From positions 896,001-960,000 of the forward strand of contig CAWJWJ010000002.1 of assembly GCA_963846575.1 (NCBI GenBank): a DNA stretch of 64,000 bases. The letters run 5' to 3'. The position numbers were made by a program, and so were the translations under genes. The stretch comes from an uncultured Nitrospiraceae bacterium. GTDB taxonomy: Bacteria; Nitrospirota; Nitrospiria; Nitrospirales; Nitrospiraceae. Positions 26,051-54,111 of this stretch are shown here, piece after piece; position 1 is the stretch's first letter, and every line of letters starts with the position of its first letter. The notes under the pieces are model-generated. The model did not search any database, was not told where the DNA came from, and saw nothing but the letters and a program-made list of their open reading frames with translations.

Positions 26051-26059
26051 CGGACTGTT

Positions 26060-37965: not shown

Positions 37966-38244
37966 CTCTCCCCAAAATCTGTGGATATCTCTGTTGATAG
38001 TCTCTCCGCGGTAGGCCAACAGTCCCGCTAATTCATGCCGCATACCATGTTGCCTATTTTTTAGGCATAGGAAGATATATTGTCTTGACCACAACATATA
38101 GTGGAACGCAGCGGCATTGTATGTATTAGCAAACACGTTCTAGACGGACGCGAATAACGTCCTGAACGGCGGGTGAGCAGCTTGTTTATTCGCGGAGGGT
38201 CGCAAATCTCTGTTGACTTATGCACAGAATGGTTCTGTGCAAGG
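37966..38244. promoter_or_regulatory. DnaA-box clusters with Fis-like and NrdR-like sites (DARS-like element)
   Basis: CTCTCCCCA-aaatc-TGTGGATAT-ctc-TGTTGATAG (37966-38000); GCCTATTTTTTAGGC (38052-38066); CCACAACATATAGTGG (38089-38104); TTATGCACA (38218-38226). Confidence 0.55.
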
Positions 38245-38642
38245 GGGTGATCACGACCCTGTAAGTTACAATAACCGCTTTGGAAGAGCCTGCCGGAATA
38301 GTCAAGAACGTACCGCCTCTATTTCTTGGACACCCGGTTGATGAAATCCACACCGTGCCCGCTATGGCCAGTCGGTCGCAGCGCACTTGGGCCGGAACGC
38401 GAACGTCATGTCCGTGTCATGCAATGAGCCACTCCTCACCGGTGGAGGCCGTTTGGGGCCCATGTGTGGTCGCCGGCGAGACGGGAGTGGCCTGACGGGC
38501 TTGTTGGGCAGAGAACGTCGCTTGAGACAGCCCGACTCCTCAGCGGAGCCAGGCCGGAGCCGATGCGTGCCTCGGCTGTTGCCAGGCACGCATCGCCCCC
38601 ACCTGTTTCAATGTACCTGCTTATGGACGCTTGCGGTCGTCC

Positions 38643-38993
38643 TTAGTAGGCCTTGCTGAATCCGGCTTCGCCGTCGTAGTTCCACAACTTTTGCGCGGCG
38701 GACCACCACCAGCCTTGTCGGGTCAGGGCGTCCAGGAACACATTGACATCCGCGTCCTGCACGTCTTTGGTCGCCATGAACCGGCAGCGGTACCAATTCA
38801 CCTGCAGCAGATCCGGACTCACGAAGCCGGGCCAGACCTTCGTGCCACGATTCGAGATGAATTCACATTTGAACGGTCCGATGTCCTCGAACGCCGGGAT
38901 CCCCTTCTCGGTGATAATGTACATATCGATCCCGACTAGGGTGATCTGGCGCTTTTTTTTCGTCGCTTTCGCAGTGTGAGTGAATGTCAGCAT
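38643..38993 (-). CDS. Stand-alone isocitrate dehydrogenase C-terminal domain protein (Thermus/Rickettsia-type IDH tail)
   Basis: LVGIDMY, ISNRGTKVWP, YRCRF, KLWNYDGEAGFSKA; own AAGGAG RBS. Confidence 0.8.
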   Translation of the reverse strand: MLTFTHTAKATKKKRQITLVGIDMYIITEKGIPAFEDIGPFKCEFISNRGTKVWPGFVSPDLLQVNWYRCRFMATKDVQDADVNVFLDALTRQGWWWSAAQKLWNYDGEAGFSKAY

Positions 38994-39031
38994 CGCGCTT
39001 CTCCTTTTCCATTCAGCGAGTGATCTCGCGC

Positions 39032-40048
39032 TTAGGCCGTTGCATGCATTTGATCTACGATGGCTTGCGCGTACTCATCCGTTGACGCGGTTCCACCGAC
39101 GTCATACGTCACGTGTTTTCGCTGATCGAGGACCGCAAACATGGCCTTTGTAATCCGATCGGCTGCCGTGTGCTCCTTTAGCCAGCGTAGCATCATGATT
39201 CCGGAGACCAGCACAGCCGACGGATTGACCTTCTTCATCCCGGCGTACTTCGGCGCGGATCCATGCACCGCTTCGAAGATCGCGCAGTCGTCGCCGACAT
39301 TGGCGCCCGGCGCGAAGCCGAGGCCGCCCACCAGGCCGGCGCACAGGTCCGTGAGGATGTCGCCGTACAGATTCGGGAGCACCAAGCAATCAAACTGCGC
39401 CGGATTTCTCACGAGCTGCATGCAGCAATTATCCACGATGATGTCGCCGGATTCGATATCGGGATATTTCTTCGCGACCTCTCGGAAGGCATCGAGAAAG
39501 AGGCCATCGGTCATCTTCATGATGTTGGCCTTGTGAACGCAGTAGACCTTCTTGCGTCCGTTCTCTTGGGCCCACTTGAAGGCGAAGTCGGCGATGCGAT
39601 AGGAGCCAGGCCAGGTAATGACCTTCAAACATTGCGCGACTTCGTCTGACACCATATGCTCGATGGCCGCGTAGCAATCCTCGGTGTTCTCCCGAAAGTT
39701 CAGGATATCGATCTTGTCCCAGGGCCGCTTGAGCACCGGGATCAGTTTCGCAGGCCGCACGTTGGCGTAAAGATCGAACACCTTCCGGAGCGTCACATTC
39801 GCGCTCTTGTGACCGGTTCCGACCGGCGTGGTGGTAGGGCCTTTCAGCGCGATCTTGTTTTTGGCGATGGCTTGCACTGTCTTGTCCGGCAGCAACGTGC
39901 CGTGCTTATCCAAGCAGTCCAGTCCGATCTCTTCATACTCCCATTTGATATCGACACCGCTGGCATCGATCACAAGCCGGACCGCTTCGCAAATTTCCGG
40001 GCCGGTGCCCTCTCCCGGTAACATCGTCACGACATGCTGTGTGGCCAT
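39032..40048 (-). CDS. icd: Isocitrate/isopropylmalate dehydrogenase family, probably isocitrate dehydrogenase
   Basis: PGEGTGPEI, LKGPTTTPVG, SANVTLRK, RENTED, HKANIMK, NLYGDILTD, FEAVHGSAP. Confidence 0.85.
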   Translation of the reverse strand: MATQHVVTMLPGEGTGPEICEAVRLVIDASGVDIKWEYEEIGLDCLDKHGTLLPDKTVQAIAKNKIALKGPTTTPVGTGHKSANVTLRKVFDLYANVRPAKLIPVLKRPWDKIDILNFRENTEDCYAAIEHMVSDEVAQCLKVITWPGSYRIADFAFKWAQENGRKKVYCVHKANIMKMTDGLFLDAFREVAKKYPDIESGDIIVDNCCMQLVRNPAQFDCLVLPNLYGDILTDLCAGLVGGLGFAPGANVGDDCAIFEAVHGSAPKYAGMKKVNPSAVLVSGIMMLRWLKEHTAADRITKAMFAVLDQRKHVTYDVGGTASTDEYAQAIVDQMHATA

Positions 40049-40110
40049 GAACAAATCTCCCTTAAGCAGCAAGAGGTGTCGGACCATCCGCTCCCTCGGT
40101 TGGAGATCAC

Positions 40111-40126
40111 TGCAAGTCAGGTTCCA
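40111..40126 (-). promoter_or_regulatory. Sigma54 (-24/-12) promoter of icd
   Basis: Minus strand TGGAACCTGACTTGCA versus consensus TGGCAC-N5-TTGCW. Confidence 0.7.
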
Positions 40127-40243
40127 GACTGGCCGACGACTGCCGTGGGCCAGGAGGCCCGGAGTTTCCCTGTTATTTCTCGGCTCGTCGCGGCCTGGAG
40201 TGTCCGGCGAAGCAGCATCCTTCCCGGGCCTGATGGACATTCC

Positions 40244-40288
40244 GTGCATCGCCACACGAGCTGCACCGCGGCCGGTGCGCCACTGCTC
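40244..40288. promoter_or_regulatory. Putative upstream activator sites (icd)
   Basis: GTGC-ATCGCC-ACAC (40244-40257) and one-mismatch GTGC-GCCACT-GCTC (40275-40288). Confidence 0.5.
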
Positions 40289-40706
40289 GACGCTCTCATC
40301 TCAGACTGTGATACGACGACAGATATCGGGGGTGAGAGAGGGGTAGGTCGCAGGGCACATAGTGCGCCGTGACTATTGGGCTTGACAGAGTTGCGCCCGG
40401 AATCGCTCGTCTAGGCTGAAGCGTGACGTGATGACCAGAGGCGGATAATCACCGGGAGAATCCGGCAGGCGTAAGTATGGTGACAACCGATGCCGGGGTC
40501 CTGAACTGCACAACGTCCTGGCTCTTGTGGTACGGTTGAATCGATCGGCTCCCGGACGTTCCCCCAGGTTTCGTATGCCGCCAACCGTCTCATTCCTCTA
40601 CACTCACCACCGCACGGCCCAGGGTATCTTGTGCAATCGGGTTCAGACAGTGTTTCTAACCCTTGCCACAGAACCTTGGCAGAAATCCCGCTGGTGCATC
40701 CCGCGG

Positions 40707-42107
40707 TTAGCCGCCACATCTCGAGATCGCAGCCTGCGCCAGGGAATGGCAATAGCCGCCTAACTCCAAGCTGCCGGTTACTACGACGAGTCCATGGGCG
40801 CCTGCTTCTAGGACAGCCCTCTCAAACGCGTCGCCAGGGTCGGTCACGACCTCTGCCGCGGCCCGCGTGTAGGAACGCCAGACACCGGCAAGATCCTGAG
40901 GGGCGACCGCGCGGTCGTGCGGATACTGGGTGAAGATGGCCTGGTCAGCTCCTGCGCCGGCCAGATGCCGGATGATCTTTTCAATCTCTTTCTCTCGCAA
41001 CAGTGAGACGACCAGGATCGTTCGGCGGCCTTCGCGGATGTTTCGAATGGTTGAAGAGAGACTGGCGGCAGCCGGAGCATTGTGCGCTCCGTCGATCACG
41101 ATCGCCGGTTGTCCGGTGAGCACTTCGCAGCAGGCCGGCAAGCGAATCTGCTCGAATGTGCGGCGAAGGGCCGGTCCATCCAATGGGGAGACCAAACCGC
41201 GGCGCCGGAGGACATCGTAGGCTGCGAGCGCATGCGCGGCATTGGTCGCTGTGAACTCGGCCGGGGAGGCCAATCTGATTCCTTCCCAAGTCGAATCCCC
41301 GACCCGAAGCGAGCAGAATCCGCCAGAGCCGGTGCGCATGATGTCCTTCGCCTCGTAGTCGCGACCGAACAACAAGACCGGGGCCTTCAACTGTTCGGCT
41401 CGAGACAGAACCACCGACCGCGGGCCGTCCTCCATGGGCCCGCACACGACCGGCGTGAGCGGCTTGACGATGCCGGATTTCTCCGCTGCGATCTGTTCAA
41501 GGGTGTCACCCAAGACATCCATATGATCGTAGTCTACGTTCGTGATGACCGAGACCTCCGGCGCGAGGATATTGGTTGCGTCTTGCCGCCCGCCGATGCC
41601 GACTTCGATGACGGCATAGTCTACCTTGGCGGCACGGAATGCGAGGAACGCGGCGGCGGTGAGGAATTCGAAAGGACTCATCTCGACGACGCCCCAGTCC
41701 ATTAGCGATTTGAGATGATTACAGGCGTCCACCAACTCCTGTTCGCTGATCGGTTGGCCGTCGATGGAGATACGCTCTCGAAAATGCCCGAGATGGGGAC
41801 TGGTGAAGCGACCGACCTTCAGGCCGCTGGCCTGGATGAGGGCCGCAGTCATCCGACTGACGCTGGTTTTCCCGTTCGTGCCTGTCACGTGCACGGACCG
41901 ATAGGCTCGGTCGGGACGTCCCAGTTCCTGCAAACAGCGGGCATTGGCTCCGAAGCTCACGGTGCCATCCGAGGGCCGGCCGCGCAGGATACAGGCTGTT
42001 TCAAGCTGGCGCAGAAAGTCCGTGACCTCCTCATACGAGGAAAAGGGCACGGTCCAGTACGGGAGCATCTTCTTCGACTCCGTGTCGTGCATAGATACCT
42101 CGTTCAT
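40707..42107 (-). CDS. folC: Folylpolyglutamate synthase / dihydrofolate synthase
   Basis: HVTGTNGKTS, FTSPHL, EVGIGGRQDATN, DHMDVLG, EKSGIVK, DGAHN, TGSL. Confidence 0.92.
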   Translation of the reverse strand: MNEVSMHDTESKKMLPYWTVPFSSYEEVTDFLRQLETACILRGRPSDGTVSFGANARCLQELGRPDRAYRSVHVTGTNGKTSVSRMTAALIQASGLKVGRFTSPHLGHFRERISIDGQPISEQELVDACNHLKSLMDWGVVEMSPFEFLTAAAFLAFRAAKVDYAVIEVGIGGRQDATNILAPEVSVITNVDYDHMDVLGDTLEQIAAEKSGIVKPLTPVVCGPMEDGPRSVVLSRAEQLKAPVLLFGRDYEAKDIMRTGSGGFCSLRVGDSTWEGIRLASPAEFTATNAAHALAAYDVLRRRGLVSPLDGPALRRTFEQIRLPACCEVLTGQPAIVIDGAHNAPAAASLSSTIRNIREGRRTILVVSLLREKEIEKIIRHLAGAGADQAIFTQYPHDRAVAPQDLAGVWRSYTRAAAEVVTDPGDAFERAVLEAGAHGLVVVTGSLELGGYCHSLAQAAISRCGG

Positions 42108-42122
42108 GTGCGCCGCAGCCTG

Positions 42123-45100
42123 TCAGGCCCGCTCGGCGGGAACAGCCTCGGTGGTGACGGCAATCCATCCGTCTGCGCCGTTGTAGCGATAATGGCGCCG
42201 TTCTACCGGCTCAAAGGCGATCAGATGAAGCCAGCGATTGTTGAACAGCTTCTCCAGTAACGGTTGGCGATTGATGATGGCTGAAATCCGGTCCCGCGGG
42301 GCTTCGACAATCGTCGCGAGGCGCATGGGTTCGTGATACGGACGCGTGCCGTTCATGACAGTCTGGACGGGCAGTCCCATCCGGAGATCACTCCGCCCTC
42401 CTGCCATCACCCCGATACGGCCCGTGACATTGTGATACACCTTGCTTCCGCTGCCATAGATCTCGGGGGCCACGGTCGAAAAATAGTATTCCAGGTTGAT
42501 CCATTGAGCCACGATCAGCGGCGCCGTCATAATGATCTCAAGGAGCTTCCCGTCGGTGTCCGGCCGATGGTCGTAGGAGTGCAGGAAGGACCGCCCCGCA
42601 AGATCGCTTCCCTGGGTCAACCGCCTGCTCCCGATGATGAAGAAGCTGTTCTTTGCCAACCCCCATTCAGGACGCACTTGCGCCCAATCCATGCTGCGGA
42701 GCTGCACGTCGCGTCTCGTGGGCATGGCCTGCAGCGCCCGGCCGCGCTCCGCAGAGGCCATGACCCCGGTTTCGTTGACGTCCTCCAGCACCTGAGTCAG
42801 TTCCTTGCGATGCGTCGGCGGCACATCTTCCAGGTCCGCGATCGTGACGTGATCCGTCGTCGTGTCGTGAAACGCCGCGAGAAAATGAGTGTCGGGCGGG
42901 ATGGCGAGTCCACGCTTCGCCAACAGTTCACGCACCTGTGGCCGATTGGCGATCATGGCGAACGCGCGCGCGTTCGGAAGCCCATGACTTCCTCCGCAGG
43001 CACCGCAATCCAACGCGGATTCGTAGGGGTTGTTTTGAGAGGTGCTGCCGTGACCGCACAGGATGACGAGACGGGACCATGTTTCGGTCAAGCCCATGAG
43101 CCGGAGCGACGTCTCCACGTAGTAAGCCTGCTCGTTCAGGGTGAAGCCCGTTTGCGTGATCCGATCGAGCTGTGCTGCCATATCACGCGGAGTGATGCCA
43201 CAGTCGCGGCGGAGTTCCTCGATCACACTCGTTTCATGATGCTTCGAAATGACCAGGAGGTGCCCGAGATCGCTCGGCACCATTTTCAAATCATGGTCCG
43301 TTCCCAGCGCTTGAAGCCGGATGCCGTCGAGGGTGTCAGCCGTTAATGTGCTGCCTGAGATCTGAAATCTGGTTCGCAGCCACCGGACGATCCGCATCCG
43401 CTGCTCGACCGCAACCATTTCCTCCGCTTCGCTTGTTGGGAGCTTGTCCACCGTCAACGTGGTCGCGACCGCCGGCATGAAGACCTGTTTCAAACGGCCG
43501 GCCAGGCGGTGATACCAGCGAGGACATAGTGTCCTCCCCAACAACGGCACGGCGAAGAACCATCCGATCGCTTCCACCATGACATAGGGCGTAATCACGT
43601 TATACTTAAGGTCGTGCAGAAGCTCATGTCCGGCCTTGGCCACCTGCGTACTGGTTTTTTGGCGCTGCGCGGCCTTGCTCTGATAGGTCCTCGGAACCTC
43701 CCGAATGATGTGCTTCGGCTTGAGGAGCACCGGGCACAGGTCCAAGGTCACGTCCGTGCCCAACGCGCGATAGGCAAGAGGCAGCCCGAAGAATCCGGCA
43801 AAACCAAAGGTCTCATAGCCCCCGCGCTGCTCGAGGTGCCGTCGAAAGACTTCCGACCGTACATCGATACAAAAAGCGAACTGGGCGAGGGGGCGCACAG
43901 GGCCCCGTTCTTGGCTCTTCAAGCCGACATCGTGACCGTGCACTTCCAGTTCTCGAAGGATGGTGTGCTGGTGTGCGAGCTCATAAGCCTCCAGCCACGT
44001 GGGGCCGTGCCGCCGTTCCGGAAACGCGCGAAGCCAGCGCAGCAGCGTCGTGAGATCGCTCGACGCCGTCGAGTGGATCCGCTCTTTCGGAACATCGAGG
44101 GCCTGAGCCAGACGGAATAACATGCGCGCCTGGTCGGTGGCGGCCTCCTTCCGGCGGAACATCCGGTGTTCATCGTACCATCGCCGGCCGAGATCTTCCC
44201 ACGCCTGGGAATTCGACGCGCGCCACCATCGCTGGAGACGCGCGGCTTCCGACGCCGCTTTCCTCGGGAGATCGCCCTGCACGAGCCGCCGGCGGAACCA
44301 CACCGCATGGGGAAACTGTCTCGCGTACGTCTGAGCCGTATCGACATCCCCCGAGCCGTGTAAGAGTTTCCGACAGGAGACTGCCACCAGTTCCCTCTCA
44401 TAAAACAGACGGACGGCGAGATACTTCACGAGGTCGATACGATAGGCCTCTTGCCAGGGATAGGATGTTTGCTCGGCGCGCCACTTGATAAAGCCTGCCC
44501 ACCCGGGGAGCGCCGCCACATGGCGTGACAGATATTCTCCCCACGCCGATCTGGGGATCTTTAAACGATCGAGCGATTCCAGGAGGACGTCTTCAGGACG
44601 GTCGGATAAGAGTCTAATCTTTTCGAATGCCCGTTTGATGCCGAGCAGGGACAGCCCCAGGTCATACTGCGCAGCGGCCTTCCAGGCACGGAAAAATGTA
44701 TTCTCGCGGCCGGGCATTGGCCAGGTGGCTTCCCCCTCGTCGCAAAAAGCGGCGCACCATTTGATTAATTGGCTGTCGATCCGGTCCTCCAGGTCGGTTC
44801 CGAACGTGCGATCGCACCAGGCCGCCATCGTTGTCCGGTTGGGCAACTCATCCGGTTCACCTAAGCGCAGGCTCTCATGCTCCTCCCAGGTCTCGGAGTC
44901 CGGAATCGACGCAAGCCGCTGCGTCAGTTGTGTGAACGAGTCCGTGTTCTCGTCCGGCGATTCGGCTGCAGCTGAGGCGGATCGGCCCGGGGACGTTGGC
45001 TCCACTCCATGCACCATCACCGCACGGAGCACGTCCAGGTGGAACAGCCGGCGATCGCCGAAGCGGATGTGTGTTTCCGTGGCCAGCGGGCGCAACGCTG

Positions 45101-45371
45101 CATCCACATGTCCTGATTGGATGCGGCCGCATCGAAACGCGTCGCGATACGCGGCACAGGAGAGGTACCCTCGCCCCCCGAAGAGCTGTTCCCCCCGCCG
45201 CACGGCCTCGTCGAAGTGGAGCTGTTCAAACCCCTGCAGCGGATTTCTCGAGATGAAGGTCCGCATCGGCCAGAGGGGCGCCACTACCTCGCCCGCGAGG
45301 TTGACATAGGAGCGCAACTCCATCCGCTGCACGTCGGTGTAGGATGTCGGCCTGCCGGTCGTTTGTGCCAT
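42123..45371 (-). CDS. dabA: DUF2309 inorganic carbon pump subunit (DabA/MpsB-like)
   Basis: APLWPMRTFISRNPLQG, LPGWAG, FCIDVRSE, GFAGFFG, GHGS...LDCGACGG, DWAQVRPEWGLA. Confidence 0.92.
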   Translation of the reverse strand: MAQTTGRPTSYTDVQRMELRSYVNLAGEVVAPLWPMRTFISRNPLQGFEQLHFDEAVRRGEQLFGGRGYLSCAAYRDAFRCGRIQSGHVDAALRPLATETHIRFGDRRLFHLDVLRAVMVHGVEPTSPGRSASAAAESPDENTDSFTQLTQRLASIPDSETWEEHESLRLGEPDELPNRTTMAAWCDRTFGTDLEDRIDSQLIKWCAAFCDEGEATWPMPGRENTFFRAWKAAAQYDLGLSLLGIKRAFEKIRLLSDRPEDVLLESLDRLKIPRSAWGEYLSRHVAALPGWAGFIKWRAEQTSYPWQEAYRIDLVKYLAVRLFYERELVAVSCRKLLHGSGDVDTAQTYARQFPHAVWFRRRLVQGDLPRKAASEAARLQRWWRASNSQAWEDLGRRWYDEHRMFRRKEAATDQARMLFRLAQALDVPKERIHSTASSDLTTLLRWLRAFPERRHGPTWLEAYELAHQHTILRELEVHGHDVGLKSQERGPVRPLAQFAFCIDVRSEVFRRHLEQRGGYETFGFAGFFGLPLAYRALGTDVTLDLCPVLLKPKHIIREVPRTYQSKAAQRQKTSTQVAKAGHELLHDLKYNVITPYVMVEAIGWFFAVPLLGRTLCPRWYHRLAGRLKQVFMPAVATTLTVDKLPTSEAEEMVAVEQRMRIVRWLRTRFQISGSTLTADTLDGIRLQALGTDHDLKMVPSDLGHLLVISKHHETSVIEELRRDCGITPRDMAAQLDRITQTGFTLNEQAYYVETSLRLMGLTETWSRLVILCGHGSTSQNNPYESALDCGACGGSHGLPNARAFAMIANRPQVRELLAKRGLAIPPDTHFLAAFHDTTTDHVTIADLEDVPPTHRKELTQVLEDVNETGVMASAERGRALQAMPTRRDVQLRSMDWAQVRPEWGLAKNSFFIIGSRRLTQGSDLAGRSFLHSYDHRPDTDGKLLEIIMTAPLIVAQWINLEYYFSTVAPEIYGSGSKVYHNVTGRIGVMAGGRSDLRMGLPVQTVMNGTRPYHEPMRLATIVEAPRDRISAIINRQPLLEKLFNNRWLHLIAFEPVERRHYRYNGADGWIAVTTEAVPAERA

Positions 45372-45411
45372 GCTGCTCACCTCTCCCTTCTGTCCCGCTT
45401 ACACCCAGCAA

Positions 45412-45427
45412 AGCAAGAAGAGGGCCG
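45412..45427 (-). promoter_or_regulatory. Sigma54-type promoter of dabA-folC
   Basis: Minus strand CGGCCCTCTTCTTGCT (GG-N10-GC with TTGC). Confidence 0.6.
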
Positions 45428-45538
45428 CGACACGGGTTCCCTTGGCCGCGGGGACGTAACTACTTCGTGTGCAAAGAGAAACCGACTCCTGGCGTCATCG
45501 GGTGACCAACGAGAACCGCACCACTCACCGAGGAAGGC

Positions 45539-45601
45539 GTGCGTCAGCACACGCGCGTGCATGCCTGCACGTAGCCGCCAACATCACGTGCGGTTGGGCA
45601 T
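45539..45601. promoter_or_regulatory. Putative upstream activator sites (dabA)
   Basis: GTGC-GTCAGC-ACAC (45539), GTGC-ATGCCT-GCAC (45557), GTGC-GGTTGG-GCAT (45588). Confidence 0.6.
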
Positions 45602-45667
45602 AGCGGGGCCGCGGATTGGAAGCCTCGGGGACGTTGGAGCGGAGCGTTCCGCCTGCATGGTCGGCGG

Positions 45668-46465
45668 TTACATGTGACCGAGTTTACGGAGTGTTTCCAT
45701 TCCACGGCCTTCGTCCTGCGCGCGACCTGCGCGTTCGGCGGTCTTGGTGCTCCGCAACTCGAAGACGACCTGCGGAATCGTCTTCGCGCAGGAGTTCACG
45801 GTGCCCGTGCAGGGCATGCAGCCGAGGCTGCGGTAGCGAGTGCCGGCCCCTTGGTCGAAATATAGTTCCGGAAGGGGAACCCGTTCCTGTTCGAGGTATT
45901 CCCAGATATTCAGCTCGGTCCAATCGAGCAGTGGATGCACGCGTACGTGAGAACCGGCAGGAAATGTCGTTTTGTATTGATCCCATAGTTCGGGCGGCTG
46001 ATCGCGGTAATCCCATTCCCCATGTTCGTCCCGGAGAGAGAAGTAGCGTTCTTTGGCTCGCGTGCCTTCCTCGTCCGCGCGGATGCCGAGAATGACGGCC
46101 GTCCACCCATGTTCGGCGATCGTGTGCTTGAGGGCCTCGATTTTCATGGCCGTGCAGCAGGTGACGCGCCCCTGCTCAGGGCCCATACCGCCCGCGAGGG
46201 CCTTCTTGTTCTGACCGACGACCAGATTGAGCCCCCACTCGCGGCAGAGCCGGTCCCGATAGTCGATTAACTCGGGCATCTCGTAGCCCGTGTCGATATG
46301 CACGAGAGGAAACGGTACATGACCGAAGAAAGCCTTTCGAGCCAGCCATAATAGCACCGTCGAGTCCTTGCCCATCGACCAGAGCATGGCGAGGTCATCG
46401 AAGTGTTTGTAGGCTTCGCGAAGAATGTAGACGCTCTGATCTTCCAGGGCTCTCAGGTGCTGCAT
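45668..46465 (-). CDS. cysD: Sulfate adenylyltransferase subunit 2
   Basis: [47 protein letters not shown]. Confidence 0.9.
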
Positions 46466-46791
46466 GAGTATGCTCCTCTTCAATAGGCTGCCGGCTCGGA
46501 GAACGTGCGATTCGACTCGAGGCCGAGCAATGGAGTCCTTCTGTCTGATGGTGCCGTGGTCTGCCTCACTGTGACCAGTCCGATCGATCCCTCCAGCGCG
46601 ATCCACAGCCTCCCGTTTCGTCGTGCGCGATGGGGGGCGTCCTAGCGTAGGCGAGGTTGACGATCGGAAGCTCCCTCAGCTCTCGTAGCGCCTCAGCGTG
46701 ACTCACACCCGGGGCACGGCCACGAGCGAGGAGACCTTGAGGAGCGGAGGGCATTCAGGAGGTCCTGTTGCATCGGGAGGTGGAGCAATGG

Positions 46792-48198
46792 TCAGCCCGT
46801 TGGTCTTCGCCGCCGGTCCAGCATCCAGCGCGTGATGCCGAGATGTTTGGCAGCCAGGGTCTTGTTGCCGTCCGACCGACGCAGCACCTCGGTAATGATC
46901 TGGTCTTCGAGGTCGTTCAGCGATTGTTCGCCAACTCGGAAAGAGAGGTGAACGGCGGTGGGATCGGACGCATCTGGCTCAGGACTCGGATGTTCTAGTG
47001 ACGTTGTGAGCGAGGTCTGGTTCGCGCCATGAAGATCGGAAGGGAAGTTGCCGGCTTCGAGGGTGGGGCCATGGCAGAACAGGACGGCCCGTTCCATAAG
47101 ATTGCTCAATTCACGGATGTTCCCGGGGAAGCGGTATTGGCGCAAGAGGGTCTGCGCGCTCCCGCCCAACACACGACCCGGCTTCTTGAGGGCGATGGCG
47201 GAACGGGCCAGGAATTGCTCGGCCAGCGGAATGATGTCCTCGGCACGTTCGCGAAGGGGCGGGACGACCAATGTGACCACATTGAGTCTGAAATAGAGAT
47301 CCTCTCGAAACTCGCCCTTCGAGACGGCTTCTTTGAGATTGCGATTGGTCGCGGCCATGAACCTGACGTCGACCGGGATGGTGGTTGCCCCTCCGACACG
47401 TCTCAGTGTTCGTTCTTCCAACACCCGGAGGAGCTTGGCTTGCAGAGGGAGCGGCAAATCCCCGATTTCATCGAAGAGAACCGTCCCTCCTTCGGCCAGT
47501 TCGATCAGACCGCATTTCCTGCCGATCGCCCCGGTGAAAGATCCCTTTTCATGTCCGAACAATTCAGACTCGAAGAGCTCACGCGGAATCGAGGGGCAGT
47601 CCACTTCTGTGCAAAGCTTGTCGGCCCGGGGTCCGTTAAAGTGGATCACACGGCTCATGTATTGCTTGCCGGTGCCGGTTTCGCCTTGCAAGAGGATTGT
47701 CACCCGGTCGTTCTTCGCCAGTTCGCGGATCTGTTGCAGGAACACCTGTGTGACGGGACTGTTCGCGATGATGCGATCGATCGCATAGCGTTTCGCATCC
47801 TGCCCGCTGTGCAGTTGGACCTGCCGGCGCAGCGTGAGCAGATCCGTCGCGCGGCGCAGCGTGTGATGGAGGTCGTCCATGTCGATGGATTTGGCGACGA
47901 AATCGAAAGCCCCGAGCCGCATCGCTTCCACCGCGTCCTTCACCGTCCCTCTGGCGGTCAGCACGATGACGAGAAGCTCCGGAAGGGTGTCTTTCACCCG
48001 GGCGAGAACCTCCAGACCCGAAAGGTTGGGCATGACGAGGTCCAGGATGAGAATGTCTGGTTCGAAGGAGCGAAGCAGCGCCAGGGCCTCTTCCCCCGAT
48101 CCGGCGGTTTGCACGGCATAGCCTTGCGCCGTGAGACGCAGGGAAAAGGCTTCCCGAACGGATGCCTCATCCTCTACGAGCAGAAGTTGCCAGCCCAT
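46792..48198 (-). CDS. Sigma54-dependent response regulator (NtrC family)
   Basis: REC domain, GETGTGK, GSFTGA, FPGNIREL, C-terminal HTH. Confidence 0.93.
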   Translation of the reverse strand: MGWQLLLVEDEASVREAFSLRLTAQGYAVQTAGSGEEALALLRSFEPDILILDLVMPNLSGLEVLARVKDTLPELLVIVLTARGTVKDAVEAMRLGAFDFVAKSIDMDDLHHTLRRATDLLTLRRQVQLHSGQDAKRYAIDRIIANSPVTQVFLQQIRELAKNDRVTILLQGETGTGKQYMSRVIHFNGPRADKLCTEVDCPSIPRELFESELFGHEKGSFTGAIGRKCGLIELAEGGTVLFDEIGDLPLPLQAKLLRVLEERTLRRVGGATTIPVDVRFMAATNRNLKEAVSKGEFREDLYFRLNVVTLVVPPLRERAEDIIPLAEQFLARSAIALKKPGRVLGGSAQTLLRQYRFPGNIRELSNLMERAVLFCHGPTLEAGNFPSDLHGANQTSLTTSLEHPSPEPDASDPTAVHLSFRVGEQSLNDLEDQIITEVLRRSDGNKTLAAKHLGITRWMLDRRRRPTG

Positions 48199-48199
48199 G

Positions 48200-50164
48200 C
48201 TAATCCTCGCGTTTCAGTGGAAGCCAGATGTCCACGACAGCCCCGCTCCCGGATGGACTGTGAACCAGTAACTGGCCGTTGTGCCGCTCGATAATGTCGC
48301 GGGTGATGGTCAACCCAAGCCCGACCCCCTTCGCTTTTCCATTCGTAAAGAACGGTTCATAAATGCGTTCCAGATCTTCGGCTGAAATGCCTTTTCCGGA
48401 GTCCGCAAAGGTGAGCAGCAGCCCCGCGCCTCTCCTGGTCTCCGGTCTCATGCTGATGGTCAATTCGCCCCCGTTCGGCATCGCATCGATCGCATTCATG
48501 GCAATGTTCAGGCAGACTTGGAGGATGTGGGCTCGCGAAGCCTCCATCGATGGAAGATCCGCGGCCGCGTGCTTTTTCACAGAGACGCGGTGCTTCACCA
48601 GGTTCGGACGCAGCAAGGCAAGTGCGTCATCGAGCAGTTCAAGAACGTGGCAGGGGGCTATCTCGAAGGGGCGCGGCCTCAACTGTCCGAGGTGGGATTC
48701 CAGGAGATCGTCGATCCGCGCCGCTTCGCGCGCGATCAGGCGGCAGCGGTCGCGCGCAGCCTGAGGAAGGGTGTCCTGGTCAGCTAAATGAGTGGCCAGA
48801 CTTCCGAGCCCGATGAGTGGATTCCTGACCTCGTGAAGGATGCCTCCGGCAAGTTGCCCGACGAGTTTCACCTGTTCGGTATGACGCAGGGCTTCCAGCA
48901 TTTGCTCGCGCTCGCTGAGATCGGTCAGGATCGCAAGAAAATACCGGATGGTCCCGTCCGGATCCTTGACCGGGCTCACGCTTTCCCATGCCAGGAACTC
49001 GGAGCCGTCCTTGCGGCGGTTGATGACACGGTCCACGAAGGCCGCTCCGGATCGGATCGCGCCCCACATGCGCTCGAAATATTCCGGCGGATGTTTTCCG
49101 GATCTCAACAATGCCGGCGTTCGACCGATGACCTCCGTGCTCGTCCAGCCCGACAACCGTTCCATCGCGGGATTCCATTCCAGAAGCGTCCCTTGGGTAT
49201 CGGTCAGCATCACGCCGTCCTGCACCAGCTCAAACATCCGGTGATAGAGCTGAAGCTGCGTTTCCTCCCGTCGCCATCGTTCGAGCACCGTGGCGACCGT
49301 GTTCGCGACTAAGCAGAGAAACTCCAATTCTTTCGGGGTGAAATCCCGCACGATCTTGCAGTGCGCTCCCATCACCCCGTACACCCGGTCCTGGACCATC
49401 ATCGGGACGCTCATGCCGGAGATGCCGCCATGTTCCGAGAGGAGCCTCGACGGCATAAAGCGCGTTTCGGTTCGCAAGTCCCGCACGACCACCGGCTGTC
49501 GTTCGCGGATCGCAAAACCCGCTTGAGAATGGGTACCGCCCTCCACCGTCAATGTTCCGATGAGACCGTCGAGCCAACCGGTGCCGGCGACGAGATAGAG
49601 ATGCTCGTCAGATTCACGAGGAATGAGAATTTTACAGAGTTCCACGTTCAGTGCCTGGGCCGTGAGTCGCGCGGCCTCGTTCATAATCTCTTGGACCGGG
49701 CTTCCGCTCACCGCCAGCGTTCCGATCTGCGCGAGCACCGATTGAAATCGGGCCACCTGGGAGGCTTCCCGTGACAGCAGGGCCCGCTCCGTGACATTTT
49801 CCAGCACGAGGAGCACACCCGTGGCGCTCCGGTAAGGAACGACGTTGAATCGGCATTCGTAAATGAGCGGATTGCCGGCTTGATCGGTCAGGCGATACTC
49901 CTTGGTCTCCCGGGCTCCGGGCGCGTCCTGACTCCAGGCCTTGACCGCCTCGATCAACCTCGCTCGCAATGAGGGTTCAGACCCTCTGAAGGGCGTGTCG
50001 ACCAATTCACCAAACTGCTTGTTTTCGAAGATCACGGTCTCGTGGGAAACAAAACAGAGGCCCCCCGGGATGCAGTCCCTGAGCCAGGCCAAGACTTCCG
50101 TGGCGGGCACTTCCGATCGCGCCTGGGCTGAAGGCTTGGGGTGTGATCGACGGGAGGAAGGCAT
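48200..50164 (-). CDS. Cytoplasmic GAF-PAS sensor histidine kinase
   Basis: GAF (SQAGFAIRERQPVVV), PAS (WNPAMERLSG, RRKDGS), HEVRNPL, NAIDAM, GVGLGL; no TM segment seen. Confidence 0.9.
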   Translation of the reverse strand: MPSSRRSHPKPSAQARSEVPATEVLAWLRDCIPGGLCFVSHETVIFENKQFGELVDTPFRGSEPSLRARLIEAVKAWSQDAPGARETKEYRLTDQAGNPLIYECRFNVVPYRSATGVLLVLENVTERALLSREASQVARFQSVLAQIGTLAVSGSPVQEIMNEAARLTAQALNVELCKILIPRESDEHLYLVAGTGWLDGLIGTLTVEGGTHSQAGFAIRERQPVVVRDLRTETRFMPSRLLSEHGGISGMSVPMMVQDRVYGVMGAHCKIVRDFTPKELEFLCLVANTVATVLERWRREETQLQLYHRMFELVQDGVMLTDTQGTLLEWNPAMERLSGWTSTEVIGRTPALLRSGKHPPEYFERMWGAIRSGAAFVDRVINRRKDGSEFLAWESVSPVKDPDGTIRYFLAILTDLSEREQMLEALRHTEQVKLVGQLAGGILHEVRNPLIGLGSLATHLADQDTLPQAARDRCRLIAREAARIDDLLESHLGQLRPRPFEIAPCHVLELLDDALALLRPNLVKHRVSVKKHAAADLPSMEASRAHILQVCLNIAMNAIDAMPNGGELTISMRPETRRGAGLLLTFADSGKGISAEDLERIYEPFFTNGKAKGVGLGLTITRDIIERHNGQLLVHSPSGSGAVVDIWLPLKRED

Positions 50165-50292
50165 GGCATCACTCCGTTCGTATCCCGCACATGATCAACG
50201 CAATGCTCGACCTTGCGTGGAGAGTATACCCAGTCCGGCTGCGGACCGTCGAGGGCGGCATCGCCCCGAGCAGCATAGGGGGGCGGTCTTCC

Positions 50293-50622
50293 TCACTTGG
50301 CGACGAAGTGCTCGCGGCGACTGACCGCGACGTCGGTGACGAACATCGCGCCGGAATGCTTGTTGAACAACGGCCCCAGGCCGGCCAGAATCGGTTCGAC
50401 CCGCTCTTCCGGCACCACCGTGAAGACAATCACCTGGCTGCTGATATCGTTGAACAACAAATGACCCTCATGGAAGCCGTGCTGGCCTTTGCCGGACACA
50501 TTGTTGATGATCGTGTAGCCGGTGGCGCCCACCCGATCCAGCAGATCAGTGACGAACTTCAGATGCTCGCCCTGAACCACCACCTTAATCTCTTTCATGG
50601 AATGCAGCGTTAAATTCATCAT
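50293..50622 (-). CDS. PII-like signalling protein (SbtB/DAB-associated type)
   Basis: GATGYTII..VSGKG.HG, PII length, GGAGGAG RBS. Confidence 0.85.
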   Translation of the reverse strand: MMNLTLHSMKEIKVVVQGEHLKFVTDLLDRVGATGYTIINNVSGKGQHGFHEGHLLFNDISSQVIVFTVVPEERVEPILAGLGPLFNKHSGAMFVTDVAVSRREHFVAK

Positions 50623-50797
50623 GCAATTCTCCTCCTACGTTACGGCATCCAGGTAGGCTGTCGTGTTGTATAGAACGCTCCTGATGGATGAATGTTCGCA
50701 TCGGCCGATACCGGGGGAGCACCCCTCTTGCGACCTGTACAGAGGAGCGTACCTCCGTGGGCTGCATCCGTCGACATCTGTCGAGGCCCTGTCGTCA

Positions 50798-52504
50798 TCA
50801 CAGCTCCAATTCAGGTGCGTCCCTCCGGCTTGTTCGAATCTTCATCCGCTGGGGGCGCTGTGCGAGGGCCCGAAGGACATCCTCAATATAAAGGCCGTTC
50901 AGGAAGGCGACATAGGCGCGCGTCTCGAGGGTACCGACCCAGTCGGGAATCGAGAACCGCATGCCGTGGGCCCTGCCGTATAAGAGGATCCACACGGCGA
51001 CGATGAGGCAGGTCGCGAGAAAGACAACCGCATCGAAGAGGCCGGTAGGCCAGGCTGCCGTTTGAAAATAGGCTGCAGCCTGTCCCGGATCGGGATAGAG
51101 GAAATGGGTGAAGGATTCGCCCGCCCATAAATAGGTCCAGCCTATCAGGGCAAGCGTCGAGACCATCGTCAGGGACACTTTCCACGAGGCCACCGCGTGG
51201 AGGCGATAGAGACTGAAGATCGCTTGGGATGAGGTGACCCAGGCGAAGAACAGAAAAATCAAGGTGCTCTGCGTCTCAAACAGCGGGATACGAACGAGGC
51301 CATGAGCGGCGAGCAGGATGATCAGCGGTAACAGCAACGTGACCCCTAATCCGGTCGCCCAGGTGACCAGGGAGAAGCCCGGTATTTCTTCGACATGCTC
51401 GTGCGCGGGAAGTTTCAGCTCGGTGCGCGCTTTCTGAATGGTGGCTCCCGAATTGAGAAACAATGCGGCCTTGAACAGTCCATGGGCGCAGAGATGGTAC
51501 ACGGAGAGGGCAAAGGCCCCTAAGCCACATTCCATGATCATGTAACCCATCTGTCCCATCGTAGAATAGACGAGCGTGCGTTTGATGCTGTATTGGGTCA
51601 GCATCGTGGCGGCTCCGACCAGGGCCGTCAGCCCCCCGATAAGAAACATTAGATGAAGCGAGGCCGGCGCCACGCCGTAGAGCGGGGCCAGCCGGTTGAC
51701 CAAAAATCCTCCGGCATTGACGATCCCGGCGTGGAGCATCGCCGAGACAGGGGTCGGCGCCTCGATGGTCTCCGGCAACCACACGTGAAAGGGGAATTGG
51801 GCGGATTTCGTCATGATCGCGATCAAGATCAACAGCGTAATCGCCGTTACCGAGTTGAGTTCGAAGACCGTTCCGCTCCACAACGAAGGCGTAGCAGACG
51901 ATTGGATCCTACGAAACAATTCCGGGAGATCCAGCGTATCGAATTTGAGATAGATGAGAACACAGCCGAGTAGCAAGGCCGCATCGCCAAGTCCCTGCAC
52001 ATGCAACGTAATTCGTCCCGCCTTGCGTGCGGCGAGACTCGCCGGATTGAACGAGAGCAGGGCCATCAGCAACCAGCTGACAGCGTGCCAAAAGCCGAAC
52101 AGCCAGAACAGATTTCCACTGGTCACTAAGCTCAAGAGCACGAAGGTCAGCAGGCTCAGCAGGCTGAAGAATCGGACATAGGCCTGGTCGCCTTGCATGT
52201 AGCGCTGTGAAAACACGTGAATCACCAGGCTCACACCTGTGATGAGAACCATCATGACGGCGGAAAGGCGATCAATCAGGACCGTATACTGAATAGATTT
52301 GGGAAGGAAGCCGGAAAACGTAAGGAACACAGGCTCGCTCTGCACGACATGATACAGCGAAGCGAGCGCCGCGACTGTTGAGAGCGACAGGGCGCTGACG
52401 CCGAGAGTGGAGCTTCTCTCGCCAAATCTGGTTCCGAGAAGCGCGATCAGGCCGCTGGCCAGGAGTGGCGCAAAGACCGCAACAAGTGGAAAGAGAATAT
52501 CCAT
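50798..52504 (-). CDS. dabB: NuoL/ND5-like membrane subunit of the DAB inorganic carbon pump
   Basis: IDRLSAVM, KSAQFPFHVWLP, APTPVSAMLHAG, YSTMGQMG, HGLFKA; DUF2309 gene in the same cluster and no other nuo genes. Confidence 0.85.
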   Translation of the reverse strand: MDILFPLVAVFAPLLASGLIALLGTRFGERSSTLGVSALSLSTVAALASLYHVVQSEPVFLTFSGFLPKSIQYTVLIDRLSAVMMVLITGVSLVIHVFSQRYMQGDQAYVRFFSLLSLLTFVLLSLVTSGNLFWLFGFWHAVSWLLMALLSFNPASLAARKAGRITLHVQGLGDAALLLGCVLIYLKFDTLDLPELFRRIQSSATPSLWSGTVFELNSVTAITLLILIAIMTKSAQFPFHVWLPETIEAPTPVSAMLHAGIVNAGGFLVNRLAPLYGVAPASLHLMFLIGGLTALVGAATMLTQYSIKRTLVYSTMGQMGYMIMECGLGAFALSVYHLCAHGLFKAALFLNSGATIQKARTELKLPAHEHVEEIPGFSLVTWATGLGVTLLLPLIILLAAHGLVRIPLFETQSTLIFLFFAWVTSSQAIFSLYRLHAVASWKVSLTMVSTLALIGWTYLWAGESFTHFLYPDPGQAAAYFQTAAWPTGLFDAVVFLATCLIVAVWILLYGRAHGMRFSIPDWVGTLETRAYVAFLNGLYIEDVLRALAQRPQRMKIRTSRRDAPELEL

Positions 52505-52547
52505 GGTCCATCCTACTGTGGTGGTTCGTGATGTGTGAGACTGTATC

Positions 52548-52563
52548 AGCAAGAATAGGACCG
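52548..52563 (-). promoter_or_regulatory. Sigma54-type promoter of the dabB operon
   Basis: Minus strand CGGTCCTATTCTTGCT, 14/16 identical to the dabA element. Confidence 0.6.
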
Positions 52564-52670
52564 ACAGGTTGCCGAGGTGGCTACCTGAGGCAAGTCTCTG
52601 AAGCATGGGAGAAATTTTGATGAGGAGATATGGGGTTGGAGAGTGTGATCGCACCTTGACCGGAAGGGCT

Positions 52671-52703
52671 GTGTATGGGCGCACTGACTGTGCGGCGGTG
52701 CAC
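52671..52703. promoter_or_regulatory. Putative upstream activator sites (dabB)
   Basis: GTGT-ATGGGC-GCAC (52671) and GTGC-GGCGGT-GCAC (52690). Confidence 0.6.
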
Positions 52704-52954
52704 GAGTGAGCCACGGCATGGCATCACGGCTCGTTCGGCACGCCACCCCCCGAGAGTCTGTTCAGAGGGCGGTCCAAACGGGGGGCACACGTGCTTGGAG
52801 TCTAGCCTGTCCATTAGAGCGAGACTGTCTCCACAATCGGTTGCCTCCCCCCTTCGCCCCTCTTGAGATGCATAACCTGCCGCGCCGGTCTTGAGGACTA
52901 TCCCTGCCAATAGAGAATAAAGAAAAAATGACCCAAGAAGCCGATCGAGGGTGC

Positions 52955-52993
52955 TTGACAGGGCCGGTAGAGACGTGTAACCATTGGTTACAC
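52955..52993 (+). promoter_or_regulatory. Promoter and perfect palindromic operator of the repressor gene
   Basis: TTGACA at 52955; GTGTAACCA-T-TGGTTACAC at 52975-52993, 1 nt before the ATG. Confidence 0.75.
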
Positions 52994-52994
52994 C

Positions 52995-53543
52995 ATGACC
53001 GCCGATGAATTTCGCCACATCAGGGAACAATTAGGGCTGACGCAGGAGCAGCTCGCAGAGGCTCTGCGTACCACGCGTGTGTCGGTCGCTCGTTATGAGG
53101 CGGGCATGCGGCGAATTGGCGGGGCCGTCGAAGTGGCGGTCACGCAACTCTCGCGCAGGGTTGAGGTTCCAATGGCCGGAGTCGTGGCGGCCGGTCTGCC
53201 GATTGAACCGGTAGCTCAATCGGAATGGGTCGAGGTGCCACCCAGCATGGTGCGCTCGGGCGACACCTTCGCACTGCGTGTGAAAGGGGATTCCATGATC
53301 GAGCATGGCATCCTCGCGGGCGATCTGGTCGTCATCCGAAAGCAGGCGACTGCCCAAAATGGTCAGACGGTGGTGGCATTGGTGAACCGGGAAGCGACGA
53401 TCAAAACCTACTTCAAGCGCGAACGCCACATTGAACTCCGTCCTGCCAATGCCGCGATGAAGCCGTTTGTGGTGACAGCCGCGGACGAATTTACCATCGA
53501 GGGGGTGCTGGTCGGCGTGATTCGTCATTGCGATAACAGGTGA
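52995..53543 (+). CDS. XRE-HTH plus S24 peptidase (LexA/CI-like) repressor
   Basis: LGLTQEQLAEAL HTH; VAAG cleavage site, GDSM catalytic Ser, ATIK catalytic Lys. Confidence 0.9.
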   Translation: MTADEFRHIREQLGLTQEQLAEALRTTRVSVARYEAGMRRIGGAVEVAVTQLSRRVEVPMAGVVAAGLPIEPVAQSEWVEVPPSMVRSGDTFALRVKGDSMIEHGILAGDLVVIRKQATAQNGQTVVALVNREATIKTYFKRERHIELRPANAAMKPFVVTAADEFTIEGVLVGVIRHCDNR

Positions 53544-53558
53544 TCCAAGGAGGGCACG

Positions 53559-53804
53559 ATGATGACTCAGCAGCAGGCAATGGTTGAACGTGTGGCTGAA
53601 CTGGAACGGATGATCGTCCGGCTGAACGGGCGGATAGGAGAACTTCAACGTGAACTCAAGCAGGGGAAGGGTGCGTTCATTGGGTGGTCCGGTGGCTCCT
53701 CCAGAATACGAACGTTTCTAGGAGGATTCAAACCCATCACCTCCACCCCGAGTCCAATCCGAGAGAACAGGAGGGTCCAACGCCATGATCTCTGTCTCTT
53801 CTGA
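53559..53804 (+). CDS. Small coiled-coil hypothetical protein
   Basis: AAGGAGG RBS, heptad-like N-terminus. Confidence 0.5.
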   Translation: MMTQQQAMVERVAELERMIVRLNGRIGELQRELKQGKGAFIGWSGGSSRIRTFLGGFKPITSTPSPIRENRRVQRHDLCLF

Positions 53805-53967
53805 CATTGACACAGCGACTGCCGGTTGTTGCGCTGACTGCGGTCAGATGGTTCTGCGGCGAACGCCGCTCCTCGACGAGCACATCAAAGTGACTCGGGA
53901 AGTCTGTATCCGCTGTCTGGTCCTGGCCTATCAACGTCGTCAGTTTGAATCGGGCTGTTGCGGGTGA
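53785..53967 (+). CDS. Small Cys-rich hypothetical protein
   Basis: AGGAGG RBS; CCADC...CIRC...CC. Confidence 0.55.
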   Translation: MISVSSDIDTATAGCCADCGQMVLRRTPLLDEHIKVTREVCIRCLVLAYQRRQFESGCCG

Positions 53968-54111
53968 CGGCTCTTTTTCAGGCGGGCGGCATGTGCCAGG
54001 CGCCGGGTGACGCGACATGTGTTAGAGTCTAATGGTCTGCCCGTAGCTGCTGAGTCCATAGAGCGCCATCGGGCCATGTTCTTCATGTCTCACGTGGAGA
54101 TGGAGCCAGCC

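Follow-up and report, generated by a model that had tools for sequence, protein, structure and literature searches.

Which regulator governs the uptake of inorganic carbon (Ci) in nitrifiers that use the reductive tricarboxylic acid (rTCA) cycle? A passage of a 2026 survey calls the abundance of Ci-uptake genes in Nitrospira "mysterious" (PMC13147460), and their expression in rTCA organisms is listed as open in a section of a 2024 review (PMC10880623). The question is raised by a 64,000-nucleotide stretch (the window) of the genome of an uncultured Nitrospiraceae bacterium (GenBank assembly GCA_963846575.1, contig CAWJWJ010000002.1, positions 896,001 to 960,000). On its minus strand follow each other dabB, a PII-like gene, the genes of a PAS-GAF-PAS histidine kinase and an NtrC-family response regulator (RR), cysD, dabA2, folC, icd and a gene for the C-terminal domain of isocitrate dehydrogenase (IDH). 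The reading favoured here, and considered fairly probable, is that kinase and RR control a Ci-limitation regulon of the Nitrospiraceae via paired boxes and sigma54 promoters; that Ci limitation is the inducing condition is likewise regarded as rather probable.

The sequence-only reading of this DNA had placed GG-N10-GC elements before dabB, dabA2 and icd, with palindromic GTGY-N6-RCAC boxes further upstream. All three 16-mers were located on the minus strand, those of dabB and dabA2 are identical at 14 of 16 positions when re-counted, and all five exact boxes are present (Table 1), their near edges 109–131 bp from the GG. The one-mismatch copies reported 31 bp further out both exist as well; the one at icd is conserved, that at dabA2 is not. 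The assumed chance rate of about one exact box per 10 kb was too high, since the 4.2-Mb genome contains 190 (one per 22 kb), near background when compared to five control patterns (127–181). A single box therefore carries little weight, and three more exact boxes in the window (15835, 28338, 46290) were not paired with a promoter in the genome scan. One box combined with GG-N8-TTGC was found 10 times genome-wide at 8 expected, so that the icd promoter needed comparative support; it is significant via conservation, not via its own genomic count. Two boxes with this element occur twice, both within the window, at 0.011 expected. A further candidate in the same genome (C2:159170, a single box at a modA-like gene) did not align with similar matches in genomes G001, G007 and G212 and was left uncounted.

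Conservation was assessed in 30 loci with an ortholog of the RR, counting regions where upstream DNA was present and including the window. Two exact boxes and the core element were found upstream of dabB in 23 of 23 and of dabA2 in 13 of 13 regions, and at least one exact box with the element upstream of icd in 12 of 12; the motif, whose presence in orthologous loci the sequence-only reading had left for examination, is thus conserved at all three genes. The distal icd box takes the form G[AT]GY-N6-RCAC, which 24 of the 26 distinct regions upstream of icd have at 29–32 bp. Upstream of cysD (within 450 bp), box and element were detected in 5 of 14 regions, not including the window genome, and control regions (upstream of PII, kinase, RR, folC and dabA1) yielded one box in 119 and no core element. 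The spacers between boxes and promoter barely align, so that the boxes (consensus GTGYR-N4-YRCAC) and core elements (GG-N8-TTGC) stand out as conservation islands. With a promoter matrix trained without the window clade (G000, G003, G014, G026 and G027 excluded), the three window promoters ranked at the top of the 9 composite matches genome-wide (48.9, 44.7 and 33.5; next 27.3).

The geometry of 150 distinct paired-box promoters across all fetched loci falls into two main classes. Boxes 17–21 bp apart (78 pairs; dabB, dabA2, SulP, ilvD) are accompanied by TTGCT in 76 cases, and boxes 29–33 bp apart (65 pairs; icd and the promoter after the RR) by TTGCA in 59. In 105 de-replicated promoters, the distances from box to promoter cluster near 111, 122, 131 and 143 bp, a periodicity of about 11 bp (Rayleigh R 0.51 at 11 bp compared to 0.06–0.12 at 7–9 bp), to be read with the caveat that the sequences are related rather than independent and that the short class alone shows two peaks only. 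The genome encodes RpoN, as judged from one match to the RpoN box on C2. None of the 105 spacers matches the consensus of integration host factor, a site that is common but not obligatory. Conservation, helical phasing and the presence of RpoN support sigma54 promoters with upstream activator sites, and the window promoters are almost certainly real promoters of this enhancer-dependent type, the mechanism being the textbook one. That the resemblance is due to chance, or is a neutral remnant of promoter duplication, is hardly credible: single boxes do occur at background frequency and the dabB and dabA2 core elements are nearly identical, but boxes and elements are conserved islands in barely aligning spacers, recur before unrelated genes and keep the helical phase, and this explanation is already largely refuted.

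The promoter architecture first seen at three genes was confirmed, but as a description of the regulon these three are too narrow. In relatives, box and core element also precede SulP-family transporters, IlvD, an AlkP-family operon (which can include TsaC/Sua5) and, upstream of cysD, the gene of a secreted protein of 790 aa; a fourth promoter, lost by the window genome, follows the RR. N. moscoviensis (L217, G275) carries the system twice, with two kinase-RR pairs; its ilvD operon continues into genes for BioD and an AIRC/LarB-like protein, and behind a single-box promoter lies an operon whose last genes encode SbtA and a PII-like protein. The theme of these predicted targets is Ci uptake, together with spare copies of enzymes that depend on CO2. 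TsaC, BioD and LarB use CO2 or bicarbonate, and FolC has a carbamylated lysine. A passage of PMC13147460 describes IDH as carboxylating with CO2 in the rTCA cycle at low affinity, IlvD-family enzymes have a carbamylated lysine according to part of PMC5770437, and loss of FolC is tied to CO2-dependent growth in an excerpt of PMC10714769. The motif of the putative carbamylated lysine is kept in the regulon IlvD. The 790-aa protein (L112:636-3017), a recurrent target in 14 fetched loci, has no Pfam match, and a fold and atlas search gave only weak lectin-like leads below the threshold for naming it.

The protein predicted to bind the boxes is the RR encoded next to the kinase. It contains receiver, AAA+ and Fis-type helix-turn-helix (HTH) domains (PF00072, PF00158, PF02954), a GSFTGA loop and a Walker A motif ending in GKQ; receiver Asp, Walker A and B motifs, GAFTGA-like loop, Arg fingers and Fis HTH, the marks of group I bacterial enhancer-binding proteins, are all present, and the recognition helix is nearly invariant. 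The paired pattern with 18–19 bp spacing was found in 29 of 29 genus relatives with an RR ortholog, in none of 7 without and in none of 24 genomes of other families. Among 244 genomes of the family, for which orthologs were read by hand from a table with 6 candidates scored per genome, it occurs in 77 of 100 with an RR ortholog compared to 10 of 144 without. The RR-positive, pattern-negative genomes G064, G076, G077, G117, G134 and G190 have single boxes or other spacings; in G086, no box was seen, the HTH is a variant and an N gap covers the promoter. Six of the 10 RR-less genomes with a paired box were inspected and four left out: three boxes lie in coding sequence, two are intergenic without a sigma54 element and one is real, a cysD-SulP promoter on a 2-kb contig. 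Single boxes at dabB in G012 and G017, fragmented assemblies in which the RR was not found, are uninformative. In G004, the cysD-dabA2-folC-icd cassette is located 1.38 Mb from the RR and keeps the box pairs at all three promoters. Eight DAB operons without an adjacent kinase-RR pair, among them the second copy of the window genome on C1, lack the boxes.

The paralog RR2 is 48% identical to the RR and has a near-identical HTH; in 10 loci where a formate/nitrite transporter (FNT) gene is directly divergent from the RR2 kinase, a related but distinct paired box is found at the FNT promoter, which ties the type of HTH to the type of box, though cross-talk may occur. Co-occurrence, unlinked targets and this paralog all support the embedded RR, which very probably binds the boxes, as the sequence-only reading had predicted. 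Binding by RR2 or another sigma54 activator appears improbable. Each half-site of the RR2 box deviates at about one base, the genome holds at least 16 activator-type motifs, and single matches of box plus element occur in the RR-less G001 and G007; against this, genomes that lack the paired box (e.g. G001, G007, G015, G022 and G023) do encode RR2, the exact box is absent from the FNT/HK2 promoter regions examined, and the recognition helix of the RR is near-invariant. In the window genome, kinase and RR2 are encoded beside the FNT gene (G000:C2:2426886-2431483) with a conserved sigma54 promoter and paired box of their own, predicted to form a separate small regulon. In L095–L097, from another family of the order, an RR2-like pair and a DAB operon are 7–10 kb apart and flank a SulP-type gene, which hints at an older tie of this activator clade to Ci uptake.

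Expression of the orthologs was followed in N. moscoviensis (locus tags NITMOv2_, matched by gene order and molecular weight), using portions of two published data sets: Table S1 of PMC8407350 for cells with 5% CO2 plus KHCO3 at about 30% O2 saturation, and Table S1 of PMC9381531 for cells in ambient air with 0.01 g/L CaCO3. This cluster is not discussed in the passages of either paper drawn on here. With 5% CO2, the first genes behind the promoters reached 1.7–45 reads per kilobase per million (RPKM) compared to 137–244 for kinase and RR, and housekeeping idh, ilvD, folC and cysD reached 659, 615, 151 and 100 RPKM; the accessory IDH (2967) was still present as a protein at rank 416 (PMC8407350). 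In air, the same IDH was the fifth most abundant protein in the nitrite-deplete ordering (PMC9381531). For DabA 3005, the spectra increased from 2 to about 200, and more FolC2 than housekeeping FolC was found. Normalized to GroEL, 19 of 22 tabulated members were higher in air than at 5% CO2, 17 of them by 3.1–10 log2; the other two, at 1.7 log2, are icd 3291 (shared peptides) and DabA1 3254 (1–2 spectra), and without the latter the higher rows span 1.7 to 10 log2. The table omits those members that the air list does not contain (dabB 3253, 3281, 3285, 3286 and 3290) and some neighbours. Four housekeeping paralogs changed by only −0.1 to +0.8 log2, and the box-less DabA NITMOv2_4856 fell by 3.7 log2. 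This last protein (L293 9683-12868, G275) behaved inversely to the regulon, being abundant at 5% CO2 and almost missing in air.

Several observations weigh against the Ci-limitation regulon. DabA1 3254 (1–2 spectra), DabA2 3289 (0–2) and DabA 3004 (1–2) were at trace level in air, dabB 3253 was undetected, and AlkP 3285, FolC 3290 and CysD 3281 are unlisted in the portion of the air table considered. The 19 higher rows include 3254 (+1.7, from 1–2 spectra), and the TsaC and CysD rows rest on 0–4 spectra. The proteomes stem from different laboratories, reactors and O2 levels (about 30% saturation versus air), and removal of nitrite, expected to lower the Ci demand, raised most members 2- to 8-fold. 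As far as these tables extend, the orthologs of the dabB and dabA2 operons of the window are uninduced in air and icd is induced; since the dab orthologs are low, the three promoters may not fire together, as the proposed co-activation of carbon pump and IDH genes would require; icd orthologs were abundant in air and those of dabB-dabA1 and dabA2-folC low or undetected. No link to CO2 is known for CysD, the AlkP-family protein or the 790-aa protein. Most boxes lie inside the RR's own gene cluster and the genomes are related, so that the co-occurrence of RR and boxes is partly trivial and inflated by linkage. Finally, the likeness of the kinase PAS domain to NifL and MmoS leaves a redox signal possible.

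A plausible, if tentative, account compatible with the Ci-limitation regulon is tiered activation by the RR, with icd-type promoters responding to mild limitation and dabB and dabA2 requiring a stronger signal or a further one. The spacing of the boxes varies together with the core promoter, as described above, and in the air data the long-spaced icd and dabB3 operons are abundant and the short-spaced dabB and dabA2 operons are not. The genes of the short-spaced ilvD promoter are nevertheless abundant in air, the long-spaced AlkP 3285 is unlisted, and all these values come from one strain with two kinase-RR pairs.

What the kinase senses bears on the inducing condition. The protein is soluble, with an N-terminal PAS, a strongly conserved GAF and a second PAS domain; its matches with at least 58% identity (36, full or contig-truncated, among 70 loci) are assigned to Nitrospira, Nitrospiraceae, Nitrospirales, Nitrospirota or "uncultured bacterium". 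The best PDB matches of its PAS are MmoS (3EWK, 8.6e-22) and NifL (9QQ6, 2GJ3), whose Trp and Asn positions it retains; the PAS domains of MmoS and NifL bind FAD. A fold search with the kinase model (mean pLDDT 72, pTM 0.40) returned only generic multi-PAS/GAF kinases (TM ≤ 0.25) and pointed to no ligand. The PII-like protein was set aside as a regulator of the kinase because its distribution follows the DAB operons and not the kinase. The resemblance of the second PAS to MmoS and NifL, together with the conserved GAF, makes redox sensing the main rival: the same regulon and regulator would respond to O2, redox or energy state via a flavin-binding PAS, states which usually coincide with Ci shortage. 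The O2 supply differed between the two proteome studies, and in the air data nitrite starvation raised the members coherently while housekeeping ilvD, folC and cysD fell. This is considered unlikely all the same, as the targets are dominated by Ci transporters and CO2-using enzymes, and both IlvD copies carry the PCN motif, which has a bearing on O2 tolerance, so that the spare IlvD is not an obvious O2-tolerant isoform. It is equally speculative, and doubtful, that the kinase is a direct CO2 or bicarbonate sensor running a family-wide "low-CO2 rescue" in rTCA nitrifiers, by which pumps are induced, IDH is swapped and enzymes are duplicated. If true, the split IDH swapped in would be the better-carboxylating one, the duplicated enzymes would be those failing without CO2, and membership in the regulon would predict unrecognised CO2 dependence, with CysD, the secreted 790-aa protein and the AlkP-family protein as examples.

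For the Ci-limitation regulon, the following course is proposed. Soluble kinase and RR would be made constitutively from their own sigma70-type promoter, which is conserved. Upon Ci shortage, or an accumulating cellular consequence of it, the kinase would phosphorylate the RR, dimers of which would bind, as in the NtrC family, to the conserved and phased paired boxes about 110–145 bp upstream. By DNA looping they would reach the sigma54 polymerase at GG-N8-TTGC and cause the promoter to open. One output would be Ci uptake, by DabAB in the window genome and by SulP and SbtAB in relatives. The other would be second copies of enzymes that use CO2 or bicarbonate as substrate or for a carbamylated lysine, namely IDH and FolC in the window genome and IlvD, TsaC, BioD and a LarB-like protein in relatives. 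Of the two promoter designs, one combines boxes 17–19 bp apart with TTGCT and the other boxes 29–32 bp apart with TTGCA; they probably give different thresholds.

Table 1. Features of the Ci locus. Positions are those of the window; predicted +1 positions follow from sigma54 promoter geometry.
Feature	Position	Strand	Remark
Distal activator box, dabB promoter	52690..52703	.	Present in 23/23 dabB upstream regions
Proximal activator box, dabB promoter	52671..52684	.	19 bp spacing
dabB sigma54 −24/−12 element, TTGCT class	52548..52563	-	Predicted +1 near 52537
dabB, NuoL-like membrane subunit of DAB/DAC Ci pump, 568 aa	50798..52504	-	PF00361/PF00662
PII-like protein gene	50293..50622	-	PF00543; accompanies DAB operons, kinase-less ones included
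Conserved sigma70-type promoter before kinase-RR pair	50223..50252	-	−10-like hexamer at same place in 23/28 kinase upstream regions
Soluble PAS-GAF-PAS histidine kinase, His444	48200..50164	-	Second PAS closest to MmoS/NifL PAS
NtrC-family response regulator/sigma54 activator, predicted binder	46792..48198	-	Asp53, Walker A, GSFTGA, Walker B, Fis-type HTH
Second cysD	45668..46465	-	Own box and sigma54 promoter in some relatives, absent here
One-mismatch third copy at dabA2	45588..45601	.	Unconserved, probably incidental
Distal activator box, dabA2 promoter	45557..45570	.	Two boxes in 13/13
Proximal activator box, dabA2 promoter	45539..45552	.	18 bp spacing
dabA2 sigma54 −24/−12 element, TTGCT class	45412..45427	-	Predicted +1 near 45401
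dabA2, beta-carbonic-anhydrase-like DAB subunit, no adjacent dabB	42123..45371	-	PF10070; Cys501/Asp503/His774/Cys789
Second folC, 35% to housekeeping copy	40707..42107	-	TIGR01499; Lys210 of EKxGI motif kept
Distal icd box, conserved one-mismatch form (GAGC half-site)	40275..40288	.	31 bp spacing
Proximal icd box	40244..40257	.	At least one exact box in 12/12 icd regions
icd sigma54 −24/−12 element, TTGCA class	40111..40126	-	Predicted +1 near 40100
icd leader, highly conserved, alternative hairpins over ribosome site	40049..40095	-	No Rfam match
Accessory dimer-type isocitrate dehydrogenase	39032..40048	-	Genome also encodes monomeric IDH
Separate gene for IDH C-terminal domain	38643..38993	-	PF18324

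In most relatives of the genus, the cluster starts with dabB-dabA1-PII-kinase-RR; the window genome, G003 and G027 lack dabA1 at this place. The same three genomes also lack the promoter that relatives have behind the RR (window 46466-46791), and cysD of the window genome may rely on read-through. Of cysD, folC and icd, the genome has a further copy each: the other cysD adjoins a cysN-like and the other folC an accD-like gene (neighbours recognised from sequence), and the monomeric IDH is encoded elsewhere. A PF10070 subunit with the Cys-Asp-His-Cys residues and a NuoL-like subunit, as expected of a DAB/DAC pump, are both encoded, the pairing of dabA2 with dabB being putative. The second dabB-dabA-PII operon (G000:C1:322859-328123) has no boxes and a decayed core element. 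The icd gene and the following one (38643-40048, minus strand) correspond to the Thermus-type IDH of 496 aa (PDB 2D1C) split into two genes, and both parts are very abundant in the N. moscoviensis air proteome. The icd leader is near-invariant in 25 of 26 icd regions and can fold into two mutually exclusive hairpins, one of which hides the ribosome site; a translational switch is possible, and CsrA is encoded in the genome. Because none of the 9 pairs shows compensatory changes, the leader is not claimed as a structured RNA, and an Rfam scan of 38000–54000 gave no match. A LexA-like HTH-peptidase S24 gene is located at 52995-53543 (plus strand), and a homolog (79%) flanks the cassette in G004 (L081), too. 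A second kinase and sigma54-activator pair (24692-27634, minus strand) is, as far as tested, unrelated to the boxes.

In a search of the open literature, with subscription journals outside its reach, no paper on this regulator or motif was found, nor one in which the sigma54 mechanism serves as a Ci regulon in rTCA autotrophs. It is a real feature with a known mechanism and an apparently undescribed regulon. Nitrospira, including the complete ammonia oxidisers, drive much of global nitrification, and the analysis offers a candidate regulator, a predicted binding motif, promoters and a list of targets for which a cultured strain provides locus tags, which makes the question directly testable. 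The data suggest that the choice of IDH for carbon fixation depends on the CO2 supply, which is of relevance to models and to alkalinity-limited nitrification.

Compared to known systems, the present one resembles the NtrC, AtoC and ZraR regulons in its receiver-AAA+-Fis HTH activator, cognate kinase and paired palindromes 110–145 bp above a −24/−12 element. The RR falls below every named NCBIfam cut-off shown, however (AtoC 401 versus 714 bits, NtrC 379 versus 559), and unlike in NtrB/NtrC, AtoSC and ZraSR proper, the box is different and the targets are Ci transporters and CO2-dependent enzymes instead of nitrogen, acetoacetate or zinc functions; the core elements deviate (GGY or GGA) from the sigma54 consensus TGGCAC. 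NifL and MmoS have the solved PAS domains closest to the second PAS of the kinase, a likeness in sequence, but the kinase has an added N-terminal PAS and a strongly conserved GAF, and several flavin-pocket positions differ. With the DAB/DAC systems (DabAB, MpsAB), the locus shares the NuoL-like and the PF10070 subunit with intact Zn ligands and the PII-like neighbour, while dabA2 differs in lacking an adjacent dabB and having its own promoter; orphan DabA and the co-location of DAB and IDH in Nitrospira are already noted in a passage of PMC13147460, there without regulation of the orphan copies. Shared control of Ci transporters (DAB, SulP, SbtA) is known from autotrophs with the Calvin-Benson-Bassham cycle, where a section of PMC10880623 describes their induction at low CO2 and part of a study on H. 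neapolitanus names LysR and Crp/Fnr types as candidate regulators (10.1101/476713). In contrast to these systems and to the LysR-type low-Ci regulons (CbbR/CmpR/NdhR), the linked regulator here is a sigma54 activator in a two-component pair, found in rTCA organisms without carboxysomes, and spare biosynthetic enzymes are included among its predicted targets.

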